NCBI RefSeq assembly: GCF_024502345.1
Contig: NZ_JALDNN010000003.1
Origin: Escherichia coli
Lineage (GTDB): Bacteria; Pseudomonadota; Gammaproteobacteria; Enterobacterales; Enterobacteriaceae
Length of the DNA stretch: 64,000 bases
Reading direction: 5' to 3' (one strand)
How positions within the stretch are numbered: the stretch's first letter is position 1; each line of letters begins with the position of its first letter. The translations under genes and the position numbers were made by a program. Shown piece by piece: positions 3,462-23,120 of the stretch. The notes under the pieces are model-generated. The model was not told the origin of the DNA. It did no database searches and saw nothing but the letters and a program-made list of their open reading frames with translations.

Positions 3462-3539
3462 AATTCGACAAGGCGGCGGGTAGCTATTTCCTGCATGTAC
3501 AAACTAACAAGGGTTTAGCCGACGATAGAAAGGAAAAAA

Positions 3540-3567
3540 GGGTTTCCCCGACCGGAGAAACCCTTTT
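3540..3567 (+). terminator. rho-independent-type terminator
   Basis: Stem GGGTTTC / GAAACCC around a 10-nt loop, followed by TTTT and preceded by an A-run, so it could act in both directions. Confidence 0.55.
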
Positions 3568-3606
3568 CTAAAGGTGCCATTAGCTTGCTGGCCCACATTC
3601 TGAAAT

Positions 3607-3626
3607 GAGGGGGGTCGCCCCCCCTC
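3607..3626 (-). terminator. GC-rich hairpin at the 3' end of the hok transcript
   Basis: 8-bp stem GAGGGGGG / CCCCCCTC with a 4-nt loop, immediately downstream of the hok stop. Confidence 0.45.
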
Positions 3627-3632
3627 TTTCAG

Positions 3633-3791
3633 CTACTTACCGGATTCGTAGTCCATCACAGCCGACACTTCCCGTGTACCGTCTTTCAGCCTCAGTTCGC
3701 AGAGCGAATTGCGCGTAAGCCAGGTGAATATCAACAGCGTAAGACATACTATCAATACGCACAAAACAACGGGTTGGTTCGGCAGTTTCAT
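3633..3791 (-). CDS. hok: Hok-family membrane toxin (type I toxin-antitoxin), 52 aa
   Basis: [52 protein letters not shown] has the same length and near-identical architecture as R1 Hok. The ORF-track entry 3633-3935 is an in-frame upstream extension (mok-like leader region). Confidence 0.9.
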
Positions 3792-3839
3792 GGCCTTCTT
3801 CTCCTTGCATTTAAGCGGGTAAGAGGCTACTCTGAATGT

Positions 3840-3899
3840 GACTAGCATACAGGGGCCTCGGGTTAATTTGAAAAAATTACTCGGGGCTTTCTGCTTTTT
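3840..3899 (+). ncRNA. sok: candidate Sok-like antisense RNA
   Basis: Antisense to the hok leader. TTGCAT (3805-3810), a 17-nt spacer and TACTCT (3828-3833) precede a long imperfect hairpin at 3856-3886 and a T-run ending near 3899. The ends are inferred, not measured. Confidence 0.4.
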
Positions 3900-4148
3900 A
3901 CCACAGTCAAACAGTGAATCTGCTGGCTGGGGCAAAAGCCTCCAGCACCGAGGTTATTATACCACCCCGCCCCTTTTAAACGAACAGATCGTTCTCCTAA
4001 ATATTTAATAAGTAAGTATTTCAGGTTTTGCTGCTTCGCAGGCTGTAACAGCAGGTGTCTGACGTAATAACTGATTAAACAGACGGATTCGAATCTCAAC
4101 ACTCAACGACGCCAGCTCGCCTGTTCCCCCGCTTCTTTCCGGCTGTAA

Positions 4149-4754
4149 TCAGTCCGTTTTCGTACCAGCGATCAGTGACAAACGGTGAGCACGAACACTA
4201 CTGTGCCGGAGGCTGTCCGGGTAATGGGCGATTTTCTCCAGTTCCTCATCGAGGCGGGTATACGTCAGCCTCCTGATTTTCAAGATTTCCTTGTGAAGCC
4301 AGCGTTTGATAAAGGGATTGCCGGAAAGCAGTACCAGGTCTGCATCCTCCACTTCATCAAAAAGCCAGACGGGTTTTGCCGGAGTAAGGCGGTAGAGCCA
4401 GGTGCGGGAAAACTCCCCCGTTGCAATCAGAAACCAGACAACCATGCCAAGTGCGAACTCGATGACCAGCATCAGGGTAAACTGAATATCCCGGACGTCA
4501 GGCTCTCCGGTAAAGCTCATTAGGCGGTCGCCAGTTGCCAGACGCTGAATAATACAGACCAGCATCAGCAGAGCCAGTAACAGCGCCATGAGCAGCCCGC
4601 CGTTCACTTCAAAAGTAGCTTTCTGGACGCGATCAGGCGGCACCTGCTTACGGTAGCGGCCGACCACATCACCAATCATTACCCTGATGGCTATGCGTTC
4701 TTCATCGACCGTTGTTTCGGTAAATCCGGACGGGCCCGTTTCTGTTTGATTCAT
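4149..4754 (-). CDS. hypothetical membrane protein, 201 aa
   Basis: Long ORF with two hydrophobic segments (LLMALLLALLMLVCII and FTLMLVIEFALGMVVWFLI). Confidence 0.6.
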   Translation of the reverse strand: MNQTETGPSGFTETTVDEERIAIRVMIGDVVGRYRKQVPPDRVQKATFEVNGGLLMALLLALLMLVCIIQRLATGDRLMSFTGEPDVRDIQFTLMLVIEFALGMVVWFLIATGEFSRTWLYRLTPAKPVWLFDEVEDADLVLLSGNPFIKRWLHKEILKIRRLTYTRLDEELEKIAHYPDSLRHSSVRAHRLSLIAGTKTD

Positions 4755-5592: not shown

Positions 5593-5916
5593 TCAGGCCA
5601 CGGGTTCATTAATGAAGCGGCGTTGCATAAACAGGTACAGATAACCCTCTGGCGAGAACATACAAAGATTCTCGGTAATACAGGCATCGAGGTACTTCGT
5701 GTCGCCAAGGAGTCGCTTAATGACAGCCAGCTGGTTAGCCGCAGACTGAATCAGCGGATAGCCATTCACGGCACGATGAATACCTGAGTGGAATAACGAA
5801 CGAGCCTTTCCAATCTTTTCCCGGGTTGCGTCCATTTCCATATCGATAACAGACTGACGCGCAACATTAATAGCATTGCCGGATAACTCCGCGAAGCTAA
5901 CCAGAGGCTTATTCAT
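5593..5916 (-). CDS. hypothetical protein, 107 aa
   Basis: ORF with GGAAGGAG upstream of the ATG. No motif recognised. Confidence 0.55.
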   Translation of the reverse strand: MNKPLVSFAELSGNAINVARQSVIDMEMDATREKIGKARSLFHSGIHRAVNGYPLIQSAANQLAVIKRLLGDTKYLDACITENLCMFSPEGYLYLFMQRRFINEPVA

Positions 5917-6101
5917 AAAAAACTCCTTCCAGGTATGTGAGCTTATTATATCAATACGGACTTTGCCCCAAACAACCCGACTCGAAATATTTTGGAAATT
6001 ACTCTAATAACTAAAAATGGCACCCGGAAAATAGAATGAATTTATTTTAAGCTTGCCGAACATGGCTGGCGGCGGAATTAAATTTGGGTAATGACTCCAA
6101 C

Positions 6102-6605
6102 TTATTGATAGTGTTTTATGTTCAGATAATGCCCGATGACTTTGTCATGCTGCTCCACCGATTTTGAGAACGACAGCGACTTCCGTCCCAGCCGTGCCAG
6201 GTGCTGCCTCAGATTCAGGTTATGCCGCTCAATTCGCTGCGTATATCGCTTGCTGATTACGTGCAGCTTTCCCTTCAGGCGGGATTCATACAGCGGCCAG
6301 CCATCCGTCATCCATATCACCACGTCAAAGGGTGACAGCAGGCTCATAAGACGCCCCAGCGTCGCCATAGTGCGTTCACCGAATACGTGCGCAACAACCG
6401 TCTTCCGGAGCCTGTCATACGCGTAAAACAGCCAGCGCTGGCGCGATTTAGCCCCGACGTATCCCCACTGTTCGTCCATTTCCGCGCAGACGATGACGTC
6501 ACTGCCCGGCTGTATGCGCGAGGTTACCGACTGCGGCCTGAGTTTTTTAAATGGCGGAAAATCGTGTTGAGGCCAACGCCCATAATGCGGGCGGTTGCCC
6601 GGCAT
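6102..6605 (-). CDS. insB: IS1 InsB frame (expressed as the InsAB' frameshift fusion)
   Basis: Canonical InsB sequence that overlaps insA in the -1 frame. Confidence 0.9.
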
Positions 6606-6799
6606 CCAACGCCATTCATGGCCATATCAATGATTTTCTGGTGCGTACCGGGTTGAGAAGCGGTGTAAGTGAACTGCAGTTGCCATGTTTTACGGCAGTG
6701 AGAGCAGAGATAGCGCTGATGTCCGGCAGTGCTTTTGCCGTTACGCACCACCCCGTCAGTAGCTGAACAGGAGGGACAGCTGATAGAAACAGAAGCCAC
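6524..6799 (-). CDS. insA: IS1 InsA
   Basis: [43 protein letters not shown]... is the canonical InsA sequence. Confidence 0.95.
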
Positions 6800-6952
6800 T
6801 GGAGCACCTCAAAAACACCATCATACACTAAATCAGTAAGTTGGCAGCATCACCGAAAATAAAATAGAGAGAGTTTTCAATCCGCATGACTTTAAAAAAG
6901 ACAATTTTTAGAAATAAGCCGGATAAAAAAATAGCTTTATCCGGCACTCATA

Positions 6953-7903
6953 TTACAACCAGTTCTTCCGCTTAAAGTACAGATACGGTGCCAGGCCCGC
7001 GAGGATCATAAAGATAATCGCGGCAGGGTAGCCGAAGCTCCACTTCAGTTCTGGCATAAACTCAAAGTTCATGCCATAGCTGGAAGCAACGAGCGTCGGC
7101 GGCAGGAATACCACGGATACCACCGAGAAGATTTTGATGATGCGGTTCTGCTCGATGTTGATAAAACCCATTGCCGCCTGCATCAGGAAGTTCACCTTCT
7201 GGAACAGGGATTCGTTATGCGGCAGCAGGGATTCGATATCTCGCAGGATTTCACGCGCCTGCTCCAGTTGCCCACCCGGTAAACGCGCTTTACGCACCAG
7301 GAAGTTGAGCGCGCGCTGGGTATCCATCAGACACAGGCGAACTTTCCAGCCGATATCTTCCAGTTCCGCCAGCGTGGAGAGCGCCTCGTCGTACTCATCG
7401 CCCTGATGCCCTTCCATAATCACCCGGCTCAACTGCTCCAGGTCGCTATAGATATTTTCAATTTCATCTGCCAACTGTTCGATTTTGGTTTCGAACAGAT
7501 CCAGCAGCAACTCGTAGGCGTTACCGTCTACCATCGACTGGCTACGGGCACGCATACGATACAGACGAAAAGCGGGCAGTTCACGCTCACGCAGAGTAAA
7601 CAGACGACCATCACGGATGGTAAATGCCACAGTGGAGTTACCGGCGTGATCTTCCGCATCTTCAAAGAAGAAGAAGGAGTGAATATGCAGGCCGTCGTCG
7701 TCTTCAAAGAAACGTGCCGATGCTTCGATGTCTTCCAGTTCCGGGCGGGTTGCCAGGCTCTGGCCAAGTTCAGATTGTAAGCGCAGTCGCTCGTCGTCGT
7801 CCGGTTCGACAAGATCAATCCATACTGCATTTACAAGGGGTTGTGACTCTTCGACTTCCAGCCGGGTCAGTCGGTTATTTTCCAGTTGAAATGCGCTCAG
7901 CAT
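6953..7903 (-). CDS. corA: CorA magnesium/cobalt transporter, 316 aa, chromosomal type
   Basis: [38 protein letters not shown]...[13 protein letters not shown]...YFKRKNWL matches E. coli/Salmonella CorA, including the GMN motif. The native start is at 7903; the ORF track extends to 7918. Confidence 0.95.
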
Positions 7904-8302
7904 GACCGGGACTCCCAATGCTTAAAATATCGGACAGTTCGGTGGGCACACAGAAACAAATTGGGTTTCAGACCATTAAACAGCCTGACTCAGCGCGACG
8001 GGAAAAATTGAGGTCGCTGACAACCGCTAAGGCTATCAGCAAAAAGGGATAGCCTTAGGAGTTGATCCTGGATGACAGGATAGTGAGCCAGTATCTACTG
8101 GGTGTGTCCAAGGCGAATGTCCTCTTAGAGTGATCGTGCGCGCATGTTACGCCAGCAAAATTTTGCCGTCAACACGCAACAGAACACCACAGAACAATAG
8201 TTGAACTTCGCGCTTTTTGGTACTCGTCAAGGTCGCTAACAGGATAAAAAAATCCCACATCCAGGACCTATAATGGCGCATCAGCTACTCATTGGTAAAG
8301 GA

Positions 8303-8551
8303 ATGATCACCTTGAATCTCAAACGGATTTTTCTCGCCCTCACCTTACTTCCCTTGTTTGCTGTTGCCGCTGATGATTGCGCACTCTCAGATCCGACGCT
8401 GACCGTACAGGCGTATACCGTTAATCCTCAAACAGAGCGGGTGAAAATGTACTGGCAAAAAGCCAATGGCGAAGCGTGGGGAACGTTACATGCTCTGCTG
8501 GCGGATATTAATAGTCAGGGTCAGGTGCAGATGGCGATGAACGGCGGCATC
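8303..8551 (+). pseudogene. 3'-truncated signal-peptide gene divergent from corA (probably the chromosomal corA neighbour, yigE-like)
   Basis: MITLNLKRIFLALTLLPLFAVAADD...MAMNGGI then runs into unrelated AT-rich DNA at about 8551, where the 9-mer ttaaatttg begins. Confidence 0.5.
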
Positions 8552-8586
8552 TTAAATTTGACGGTTTTTGATATAAAATATAGAAA

Positions 8587-8613
8587 GAAGGAGGTTTTCT
8601 GAATACCTCCTTC
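8587..8613 (-). terminator. hairpin terminator of the long minus-strand gene string
   Basis: Perfect 9-bp stem GAAGGAGGT / ACCTCCTTC with a 9-nt loop, 9 nt past the stop of the 8622-8828 gene. Confidence 0.55.
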
Positions 8614-8621
8614 ACTGGCGC

Positions 8622-8828
8622 TCAGTTCGAGAATACGTTAACGCTGTACCGTTTACCGAGCACCTCGGCAGTGGTATCGACAATTTTCTGAATATCATCG
8701 GCAATCGCGGGTTTACTGAATGCGACGGTGTGCAGTTCACCAGCCTGTTCCGCCGTCGCACCATCATGAAAGCGGCTGGCATCGTAAAGCTGGACCCGGA
8801 GTGTCCGGGTATAATCGACATGGCCCAT
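8622..8828 (-). CDS. hypothetical protein, 68 aa
   Basis: ORF with AGGAGAGGAA upstream. It competes with 8612-8821 in another frame. Confidence 0.45.
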   Translation of the reverse strand: MGHVDYTRTLRVQLYDASRFHDGATAEQAGELHTVAFSKPAIADDIQKIVDTTAEVLGKRYSVNVFSN

Positions 8829-8862
8829 TATTCCTCTCCTGTTCAGTCAGGCGCTATACGCG

Positions 8863-9087
8863 TTAATAATCACTTTCTTCCGGTTGCGGCTGGGTGACAA
8901 ACTGGTACTTCACCCCATTAGGGACGCCAACGGCTTTTGCTACAGATTCACACAGCAGCGACAGGTCATTCAGAGTCATCGGATATTCGATATCGACGGA
9001 ATATAAGGCCCCGGCGTTCTCGGCCTCTTCGATATTTTTATACTGGGCACTGAAAATGGCTATGGTAGAGATTTCAAGGTTATGCAT
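8863..9087 (-). CDS. hypothetical acidic protein, 74 aa, paralog of 14964-15188
   Basis: Shares the block EYPMTLNDLSLLCESVAKA and the overall length with the 14964-15188 ORF. Confidence 0.65.
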   Translation of the reverse strand: MHNLEISTIAIFSAQYKNIEEAENAGALYSVDIEYPMTLNDLSLLCESVAKAVGVPNGVKYQFVTQPQPEESDY

Positions 9088-20265: not shown

Positions 20266-20321
20266 TTTTCTCCGCCTTCAATTTTTAAATTTGTCAGTTC
20301 TGCTACGTGTAAAAAACAGCA

Positions 20322-22324: not shown

Positions 22325-22379
22325 GGTGATGCTGCCAACTTACTGATTTAGTGTATGATGGTGTTTTTGAGGTGCTCCA

Positions 22380-22655
22380 GTGGCTTCTGTTTCTATCAGC
22401 TGTCCCTCCTGTTCAGCTACTGACGGGGTGGTGCGTAACGGCAAAAGCACCGCCGGACATCAGCGCTATCTCTGCTCTCACTGCCGTAAAACATGGCAAC
22501 TGCAGTTCACTTACACCGCTTCTCAACCCGGTACGCACCAGAAAATCATTGATATGGCCATGAATGGCGTTGGATGCCGGGCAACAGCCCGCATTATGGG
22601 CGTTGGCCTCAACACGATTTTACGTCACTTAAAAAACTCAGGCCGCAGTCGGTAA
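22380..22655 (+). CDS. insA: IS1 InsA
   Basis: Canonical InsA sequence. Confidence 0.95.
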
Positions 22656-23077
22656 CCTCGCGCATACAGCCGGGCAGTGACGTCATCGTCTGCGCGGAAA
22701 TGGACGAACAGTGGGGATACGTCGGGGCTAAATCGCGCCAGCGCTGGCTGTTTTACGCGTATGACAGGCTCCGGAAGACGGTTGTTGCGCACGTATTCGG
22801 TGAACGCACTATGGCGACGCTGGGGCGTCTTATGAGCCTGCTGTCACCCTTTGACGTGGTGATATGGATGACGGATGGCTGGCCGCTGTATGAATCCCGC
22901 CTGAAGGGAAAGCTGCACGTAATCAGCAAGCGATATACGCAGCGAATTGAGCGGCATAACCTGAATCTGAGGCAGCACCTGGCACGGCTGGGACGGAAGT
23001 CGCTGTCGTTCTCAAAATCGGTGGAGCTGCATGACAAAGTCATCGGGCATTATCTGAACATAAAACACTATCAATAA
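22574..23077 (+). CDS. insB: IS1 InsB frame
   Basis: Canonical InsB sequence. A few substitutions distinguish it from copy A. Confidence 0.9.
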
Positions 23078-23120
23078 GTTGGAGTCATTACCGAAATACC
23101 GAAAAGTTTCATTTTTTACC

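Follow-up and report, generated by a model that had tools for sequence, protein, structure and literature searches.

Decay of a two-ended IS1 compound transposon probably accounts for a corA segment in an IncHI1 plasmid

The best-studied case of compound-transposon decay is that of Tn6330 (ISApl1-mcr-1-pap2-ISApl1; Snesrud, McGann & Chandler 2018, PMC5821093), a compound transposon with a target duplication for which empty, complete and insertion sequence (IS)-deleted states are known at one site of related backbones. In Tn6330 decay, deletion sizes cluster at the IS length and the junctions show microhomologies of 2-4 bp, which has been ascribed to abortive copy-out transposition; in the same work, the hypothesis that a pseudo right inverted repeat (pseudo-IRR) had given rise to the single-ended mcr-1 forms was rejected (PMC5821093; bioRxiv 10.1101/2023.06.07.543989). 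Classical IS1 compound transposons such as Tn9, Tn1681 and Tn6062 use two IS1 copies to mobilise a chromosomal or resistance segment and generate 9-bp duplications. One-ended units, as known for ISEcp1-blaCTX-M, IS1247 and IS91, consist of a single IS and the adjacent passenger, with a target duplication around the whole. Here we describe a stretch of 64,000 nucleotides from an Escherichia coli contig (NZ_JALDNN010000003.1, assembly GCF_024502345.1), in the following called the window, in which a single IS1 and 1.7 kb of chromosomal DNA with corA, a magnesium/cobalt transporter gene, are enclosed by a 9-bp duplication. At first sight this arrangement resembles the one-ended units; it is probably the remnant of a two-ended IS1 compound transposon that had inserted into an IncHI1 plasmid.

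The unit of IS1 and passenger comprises 2,465 bp and is bracketed by a perfect 9-bp direct repeat, TTAAATTTG, at 6078-6086 and 8552-8560. The probability of a 9/9 match at two pre-specified boundaries is ~4e-6. One extra copy of TTAAATTTG is located at 20285, which is consistent with the chance expectation of 1.4 copies per window. The IS1 element starts with GGTAATGAC... at 6087 and ends with ...GCAGCATCACC at 6854; its outer end is of the IRR type (6087-6109) and its inner end of the left inverted repeat (IRL) type (6832-6854). Both open reading frames (ORFs), insA (6524-6799) and insB (6102-6605), lie on the minus strand and are intact. Since its inner flank is GAAAATAAA, this IS1 has no duplication of its own, and the junction between IS1 and GAAAATAAA is identical in all copies of the element that we examined. 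At 8551 there is no IS1 end. The window thus contains one IS1 (6087-6854) in place of the two copies of an intact compound transposon, and the 9-bp direct duplication surrounds the unit as a whole. The components are, from left to right:

6078-6086, no strand: left copy of the target-site duplication, TTAAATTTG; present as a single copy at the empty site, and found (as CAAATTTAA) around the two-IS1 transposon in CP029690.1 and CP077527.1
6087-6854, minus strand: complete IS1 of 768 bp, the surviving corA-proximal copy, recognised by its end sequences and ORFs
6855-8551, no strand: passenger, 1,697 bp of E. coli chromosome between two IS1 insertions, recognised by homology to the native locus
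6855-6911, plus strand: last 57 bp of a DUF943-family gene, cut by the corA-side IS1; it natively adjoins corA in about half of the E. coli genomes
6953-7903, minus strand: corA, intact, 316 codons, magnesium/cobalt transporter; an ORF annotated as corA in all related records
8055-8111, minus strand: small ORF ysgD, with coordinates carried over from the annotation of R27 and the parental plasmids
8273-8551, plus strand: yigE', the first 93 of 254 native codons including the signal peptide, from the ORF and a comparison with K-12
8551-8552, no strand: deletion scar; from the comparison with L008 and L025, the parent has 777 bp here, namely TATGATGAA and IS1 or, equivalently, ATGATGAA, IS1 and T
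8552-8560, no strand: right copy of the target-site duplication, TTAAATTTG, from the repeat search and the empty-site comparison

When 5687-6086 is joined to 8561-8960, an 800-bp predicted empty site with a single TTAAATTTG is obtained. Requiring that at least 80% of the 800 bp be covered at an identity of at least 99%, we retrieved this site from 213 records of the plasmid collection, and every listed record is 100% identical over the full 800 bp. The carriers are IncHI1-type conjugative plasmids of Salmonella, E. coli, Klebsiella and others, i.e. the uninterrupted site exists in related replicons. Since the predicted empty site exists, the 9-bp repeat is a true target-site duplication. A sequence-only reading of the window had anticipated this result, including the single TTAAATTTG in sister plasmids, and had also noted that the IS1 copy has no duplication of its own.

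Its further proposal that IS1 transposition had brought 1.7 kb of E. coli chromosome into the plasmid is likewise borne out by the native DUF943-corA-ysgD-yigE locus of E. coli (L015), which matches exactly 6855-8551/8552 at 98.1% identity, so that the homology stops at the boundary of the unit. K-12 matches only 6953-8552 (corA, ysgD and the 5' part of yigE), because a different gene is located downstream of corA in this strain. The 98 bp downstream of corA that K-12 lacks (6855-6952) belong to the native sequence in 2,755 of 5,426 E. coli genomes, in which the DUF943 gene comes after corA. In K-12, the native yigE sequence reads ...GGCGGCATC, then TATGATGAA, then AGC...; in the window, the yigE' frame remains open beyond 8551 for 16 plasmid-derived codons, to 8602.

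The complete transposon is preserved at the same site in IncHI1 plasmids of two different strains, pSD134209-1 (CP029690.1, L008) and p2010C_3053-1 (CP077527.1, L025), which carry it between the same two backbone genes, in the order ccgt CAAATTTAA / IS1 / GAAAATAAA..corA..GGCGGCATC TATGATGAA / IS1 / CAAATTTAA ttccgcc. As CAAATTTAA is the reverse complement of TTAAATTTG, both sides of the transposon carry the same 9-bp duplication that encloses the unit in the window. Because these two plasmids keep a complete IS1 at the right-hand end of the transposon, this end is a real IS1 end that was later deleted. There are two IS1 copies in the parents and one in the window, and therefore the window harbours a derivative and not an intact compound transposon. 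The reverse derivation, of the two-IS1 form from the short form, is impossible: the extra TATGATGAA is native yigE sequence, and there is no donor for the IS1/CAAATTTAA junction. For these same reasons the two-IS1 state is ancestral to the short form at this site. An intact parent at the same site of a related backbone is thus available, in the orientation of R27 only.

The transposon is not restricted to IncHI1 plasmids. The identical IS1/GAAAATAAA junction and the 1,697-bp segment occur in an IncR plasmid, in IncHI2 plasmids, in an mcr-1 plasmid and in E. coli chromosomes, and in those replicons the segment extends by 9 bp more, TATGATGAA, into a second, inverted IS1. Among the window, R27, the parents and these other replicons the segment shows 0-4 single-nucleotide polymorphisms (SNPs). 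Two IS1 copies bracket the passenger in L008, L025, L002, L006, L007, L009 and L010. At other sites the duplications are different, with perfect 9-bp copies of CACCACCTC in p4FM-mcr1 (L007) and of GCCGACGGC in pATCC43845 (L010), and the chromosomal contexts vary. Judging from these perfect duplications at independent sites, the arrangement IS1-corA-ysgD-yigE'-IS1 is shown to be an active compound transposon, which evidently moves as a unit and generates 9-bp duplications. The yigE'-IS1 junction is present in roughly 400 of 5,426 complete E. coli genomes (roughly 7%), an upper estimate that takes in a few IncHI1 IS1-plus-flank matches; the genomes with this junction therefore have a second copy of corA. 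In the literature that we searched there was no Tn number, name or description of an IS1-corA transposon, and the only remark was that the presence of corA varies among R27-like plasmids.

In the plasmid collection, the IncHI1 site is empty in 213 records, carries the R27-type unit in 27 and the window-type unit in 14, and is occupied by the complete transposon in 1; 1 more complete copy was found in the E. coli genome collection. In R27, IS1 and passenger are located at the same site and in the same orientation as in the parent. The right junction is GGCGGCATC/TAAATTTAA, in which the first base of the duplication is T and not C. In a simulation, a 777-bp deletion from the parent (ATGATGAA + IS1 + C), at an offset of +1 or +2, gives the R27 junction exactly. 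Moreover, the diagnostic SNPs of the R27 IS1 (e.g. 507A) are shared only with the IS1 copies of the parental plasmid. In the window and in pHCM1 the unit occupies the same site and is inverted relative to the backbone when compared with R27. The window junction, GGCGGCATC/TTAAATTTG, corresponds to the same 777-bp deletion from a flipped parent, as worked out by hand from the L008 and L025 sequences. Hence, as in a decayed transposon, about one IS length has been lost (777 vs 768 bp), the ends are close to the IS tips, and the microhomology is short. The passengers of the window and R27 differ by only 2 SNPs. A private synonymous change in corA at position 7373 of the window (ACG vs ACT, Thr177) occurs neither in R27 nor in the parental plasmids or the other copies examined.

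We conclude, with a probability of roughly 0.87, that an IS1 compound transposon with two ends once entered an IncHI1 plasmid, lost one IS1 there afterwards and has left the block as its remnant; no cryptic end is needed. The history would have begun in an E. coli chromosome, where, to judge from the anatomy of the element, two inverted IS1 copies came to bracket 1,706 bp of DUF943'-corA-ysgD-yigE' ending in ...GGCGGCATC TATGATGAA. The two-IS1 element would then have transposed as a unit, with the 9-bp duplications that are observed, and would have inserted into the intergenic TTAAATTTG of the IncHI1 backbone, a state that persists in pSD134209-1 and p2010C_3053-1. Homologous recombination between the inverted 768-bp IS1 copies could have flipped the central segment, a step that would explain the opposite orientations of the unit in R27 and the window at the same site. 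Finally, the yigE-proximal IS1 would have been deleted together with 8-9 bp of the adjacent yigE, 777 bp in total, in each of two lineages; the deletion itself is seen at both junctions, and the two events were presumably independent. This loss would have left the outer target duplication directly against ...GGCGGCATC. What remains would be one IS1 with its corA segment; lacking the second end, it would no longer be mobile as a compound transposon.

Several points weigh against this history. The flipped-orientation parent, which is needed for the window lineage, was found neither in the plasmid collection nor in the E. coli genomes. At the chromosomal site represented by L003, which only about 3 genomes share, none is flipped, and a flip of this transposon was not directly observed. 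The history also presupposes that one and the same IS1 was lost on two independent occasions, in deletions of equal size. A pattern scan of species-representative genomes and metagenome contigs for ...GGCGGCATC followed by non-native sequence, in which the E. coli and plasmid collections were not exhaustively screened, did not reveal a third independent loss at another site. The deletion amounts to IS1 plus 9 bp, as compared with a size close to the IS length in Tn6330.

Two direct routes from the R27 type to the window type were considered and rejected. An in-place inversion of the R27 unit via the palindromic AAATTT core predicts the junctions …AAATTTAA/GGTAATG and GGCGGCATC/TAAATTTG, which differ from those of the window. 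The second route combines an intramolecular replicative inversion of IS1 into the neighbouring duplication with later slippage between AAATTTA repeats; it predicts, when worked through by hand, a junction that lacks one A.

Other plasmids show further variation at this site. In pHCM1, the only one checked directly, the IS1 (L016, 988-1722) measures 735 bp owing to a 33-bp internal deletion, which corresponds to about 6460-6483 of the window. All 14 window-type plasmids of the collection (14/14) align in two pieces that are ~33 bp short, which suggests that the deletion may be common to all of them. With its intact 768-bp IS1, the window may have branched off earlier; alternatively, conversion by another copy may have restored its IS1. 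In IncHI1 plasmids of E. coli, Citrobacter and Salmonella (L011, L013 at 3501-4368 and L012 at 3501-4372), a lone IS1 lies on one flank of the site with unrelated backbone beyond it, the junctions being CATTACC/TTAAATTTGACGG or GGAATTAAATTTG/GGTAATG. Deletions or inversions that IS1 later brought about in the same ancestral insertion appear to account for these plasmids. The window contains a second complete IS1 at 22325-23092, in opposite orientation to the copy at 6087-6854. A perfect 9-bp duplication, GAAATACCG, flanks this copy by itself and marks it as a simple insertion.

The junctions also give hints on how the IS1 was lost. Both types correspond to the loss of exactly IS1 plus 9 bp (777 bp). 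The deletion stops no more than 1 bp from the outer tip of IS1, and beyond the inner tip it takes in another 8-9 bp, with a microhomology limited to 1-2 nt (CT in the window, A in R27). Because the endpoints are tied to the IS1 tips, the microhomology is this short and the size is the same in both lineages, the loss of the yigE-side IS1 was most likely a transposase-linked event, namely abortive copy-out. After synapsis of the IS1 ends, one 3'-OH would attack its own strand a few bp beyond the other end, as in the circle or figure-eight step; the freed 3'-OH of the flank would then be joined to, or template-switched onto, the opposite flank instead of copying the IS. Junctions of IS1 circles reportedly contain a spacer of 6-9 bp (Sekine 1997, Shiga 1999), a length with which the 8-9 bp offset would agree. 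IS1 is listed among the circle-forming IS elements, and IEE stimulates IS1 excision (bioRxiv 10.1101/2023.06.07.543989). It is even conceivable, at slightly less than even odds in our estimation, that the junctions of the window/pHCM1 type and of the R27 type are natural footprints of the IS1 circle-forming reaction, in which the donor was resealed from a point 8-9 bp outside one tip to the other tip. If so, abortive copy-out, so far deduced above all for the IS30 and IS3 families, would extend to the IS1 family, there with near-deterministic endpoints, and a '777-bp scar' would be a general diagnostic for vanished IS1 copies.

The main rival at the level of the mechanism shares the descent from a two-IS1 element and ascribes the loss to transposase-independent illegitimate recombination or replication slippage, by snap-back of the IS1 inverted repeats and use of 1-2 nt of microhomology. 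The microhomology at both junctions accords with such a process, slippage is a classical route of IS excision, and the low basal excision of IS1 may use it (bioRxiv 10.1101/2023.06.07.543989). However, slippage normally makes use of flanking direct repeats, and none of useful length is present here. Two independent 777-bp events with ends tied to the IS1 tips are also hard to reconcile with 1-2 nt of homology alone, whereas they fit synapsed ends. We regard slippage as less likely and favour a transposase-linked loss.

The opposite orientations of the R27 and window units could, in principle, also mean that the compound transposon entered the same 9-bp target on two occasions and lost one IS1 each time, without any flip. 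That the flipped parent is missing from the plasmid collection and the E. coli genomes speaks in favour of this possibility, and so does the preference of IS1 for AT-rich targets; since the outer ends of the transposon are identical, both histories would leave the same sequence. Yet two hits on the identical 9-bp target would be needed within a single backbone lineage, recombination between inverted repeats of 768 bp is nothing out of the ordinary, and the low divergence of the window and R27 passengers mentioned above also argues against separate arrivals. Two insertions are thus improbable, and a single insertion followed by a flip is preferred.

The sequence-only reading had explained the single IS1 by a cryptic second end, on the grounds that the right terminus resembles the IS1 repeat. 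The underlying 8/9 match of GGCGGCATC with GGCAGCATC is real; it is not unusual, however, as there are 22 matches of 8/9 to GGCAGCATC in the window versus 14 expected, and as a transposon end the sequence does not rise above background. Read inward, the candidate end agrees with the IS1 IRL at 9/23 positions in either register, and about 15% of the passenger positions do as well or better. The 8/9 core corresponds to positions 4-12 of the inverted repeat (IR), so that in this register the boundary falls 3 bp short of where the true end would be, and the terminal GGT is absent; an IR-like sequence in register with the cleavage site is therefore lacking. The scan of species-representative genomes and metagenome contigs yielded no junctions other than the two IncHI1 types, and no unit with the short GGCGGCATC end at any other target. 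The IR score, the scans and the parent at the same site leave little room for such a model. That this IS1 and a cryptic IR-like yigE sequence (GATGCCGCC...) moved the 2,465-bp unit directly from chromosome to plasmid by one-ended transposition is very improbable: although a perfect 9-bp duplication abuts the unit, an empty site exists and the last 9 bp match IRL positions 4-12 at 8/9 (with a chance of roughly 0.03-0.06 for such a match near the boundary, by our post-hoc estimate), the complete second IS1 that lies 9 bp further out in two plasmids, with the same duplication at the same site, would have to come from a separate hit on an identical 9-bp target, the stop of the short unit exactly 9 bp inside that IS1 would be an unexplained coincidence, and the R27 unit, opposite at the same site and with an imperfect right repeat (T for C), would call for yet another independent hit.

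In the parent (L008, L025), the yigE end matches the inner IS1 repeat in inverted orientation at 8/9 positions, with the two arms 12 bp apart, GGCGGCATC TATGATGAAGGT GATGCTGCC. The endpoint of the 777-bp deletion lies exactly at the outer edge of this inverted repeat; the chance is about 0.03-0.06 (a post-hoc estimate), and the coincidence is unexplained. The 8/9 inverted repeat GGCGGCATC-N12-GATGCTGCC might favour the loss of one IS1 copy over that of the other, or might have affected the choice of the place where the second IS1 inserted. The 22-mer GATGGCGATGAACGGCGGCATC was found as an exact match in contigs L017, L018, L019 and L022 (also L020 and L023) from Thermodesulfovibrionales, Geobacteraceae and various metagenomes. 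None of these contigs is homologous to the IS1-corA unit, and the matches are chance matches in other phyla. Four of the contigs have flanks that are alike, which suggests a conserved, unrelated gene.

The surroundings of the two-IS1 transposon elsewhere are diverse. Chromosomal settings (e.g. L003, L006) include positions beside mrk/fim, glcA, phage gpJ, gspC and a lipocalin gene. In IncR, IncHI1B-typed and IncHI2 plasmids (L002 5763-7467, L009 6786-7470, L010 6782-7466), the corA transposon directly adjoins a betT-type choline transporter gene, and in L002 a DUF2254 gene is also located beside it. The combination of the corA transposon with a betT-type neighbour resembles Tn6062, the IS1-flanked betU element of IncHI1 plasmids. 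L009 and L010 have the right-hand junction GCCGACGGC in common and differ in their left junctions, a pattern that suggests shuffling of neighbouring IS1-bounded modules, possibly mediated by IS1.

A comparison with known systems places the locus among compound transposons in decay. Tn6062 is reportedly an IS1 compound transposon that carries a chromosomal transporter gene, betU, on IncHI1 plasmids. It is mentioned in a preprint (bioRxiv 10.1101/334409). The present element differs from the classical IS1 compound transposons in its passenger, corA-ysgD-yigE', and in that the window holds only the decayed one-IS1 form. The one-ended ISEcp1, IS1247 and IS91 units have varied, weak IRR-like ends, different unit lengths and many sites, whereas here there is one boundary at one site, no credible IR and a demonstrated two-IS parent. 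With Tn6330 the locus shares the insertion of a compound transposon with a target duplication, the occurrence of empty, complete and IS-deleted states at one site of related backbones, the loss of one flanking IS, a deletion size tied to the IS length, tiny microhomologies and an immobilised passenger, and in both cases a rival hypothesis of a pseudo-IR and single-ended mobilisation was raised and rejected. The differences from Tn6330 lie in the IS, which belongs to the IS30 family there and is IS1 here; in the orientation of its copies, which are direct there and inverted here, so that the central segment can flip; in the duplication, which has 2 bp there and an unambiguous 9 bp here; in the deletion, which is of about IS length there and amounts to the IS plus 9 bp here, shifted 8-9 bp into the passenger; and in the passenger itself, a housekeeping cation transporter gene instead of a resistance gene. 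Tn6330 also decays to IS-less mcr-1 structures besides the single-ended ones. The locus is thus a new and well-documented case of a known process, compound-transposon decay, in an IS family other than that of the best-studied case, and represents neither a new kind of element nor a new mechanism. It illustrates that a single IS with passenger and target duplication can mimic one-ended transposition and be, as here, the fossil of a two-ended compound transposon. All states of one insertion, i.e. empty, complete and decayed in both orientations, are documented in the clinically important IncHI1 family (R27, pHCM1 and relatives), and a housekeeping Mg/Co transporter gene, corA, is seen to be carried by an active IS1 compound transposon, widespread in E. 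coli and apparently still without a name. As an example of decay with a clean 9-bp duplication in a system other than mcr-1, the locus is useful for the annotation of IS1 scars and for probing the abortive-transposition model in the IS1 family.

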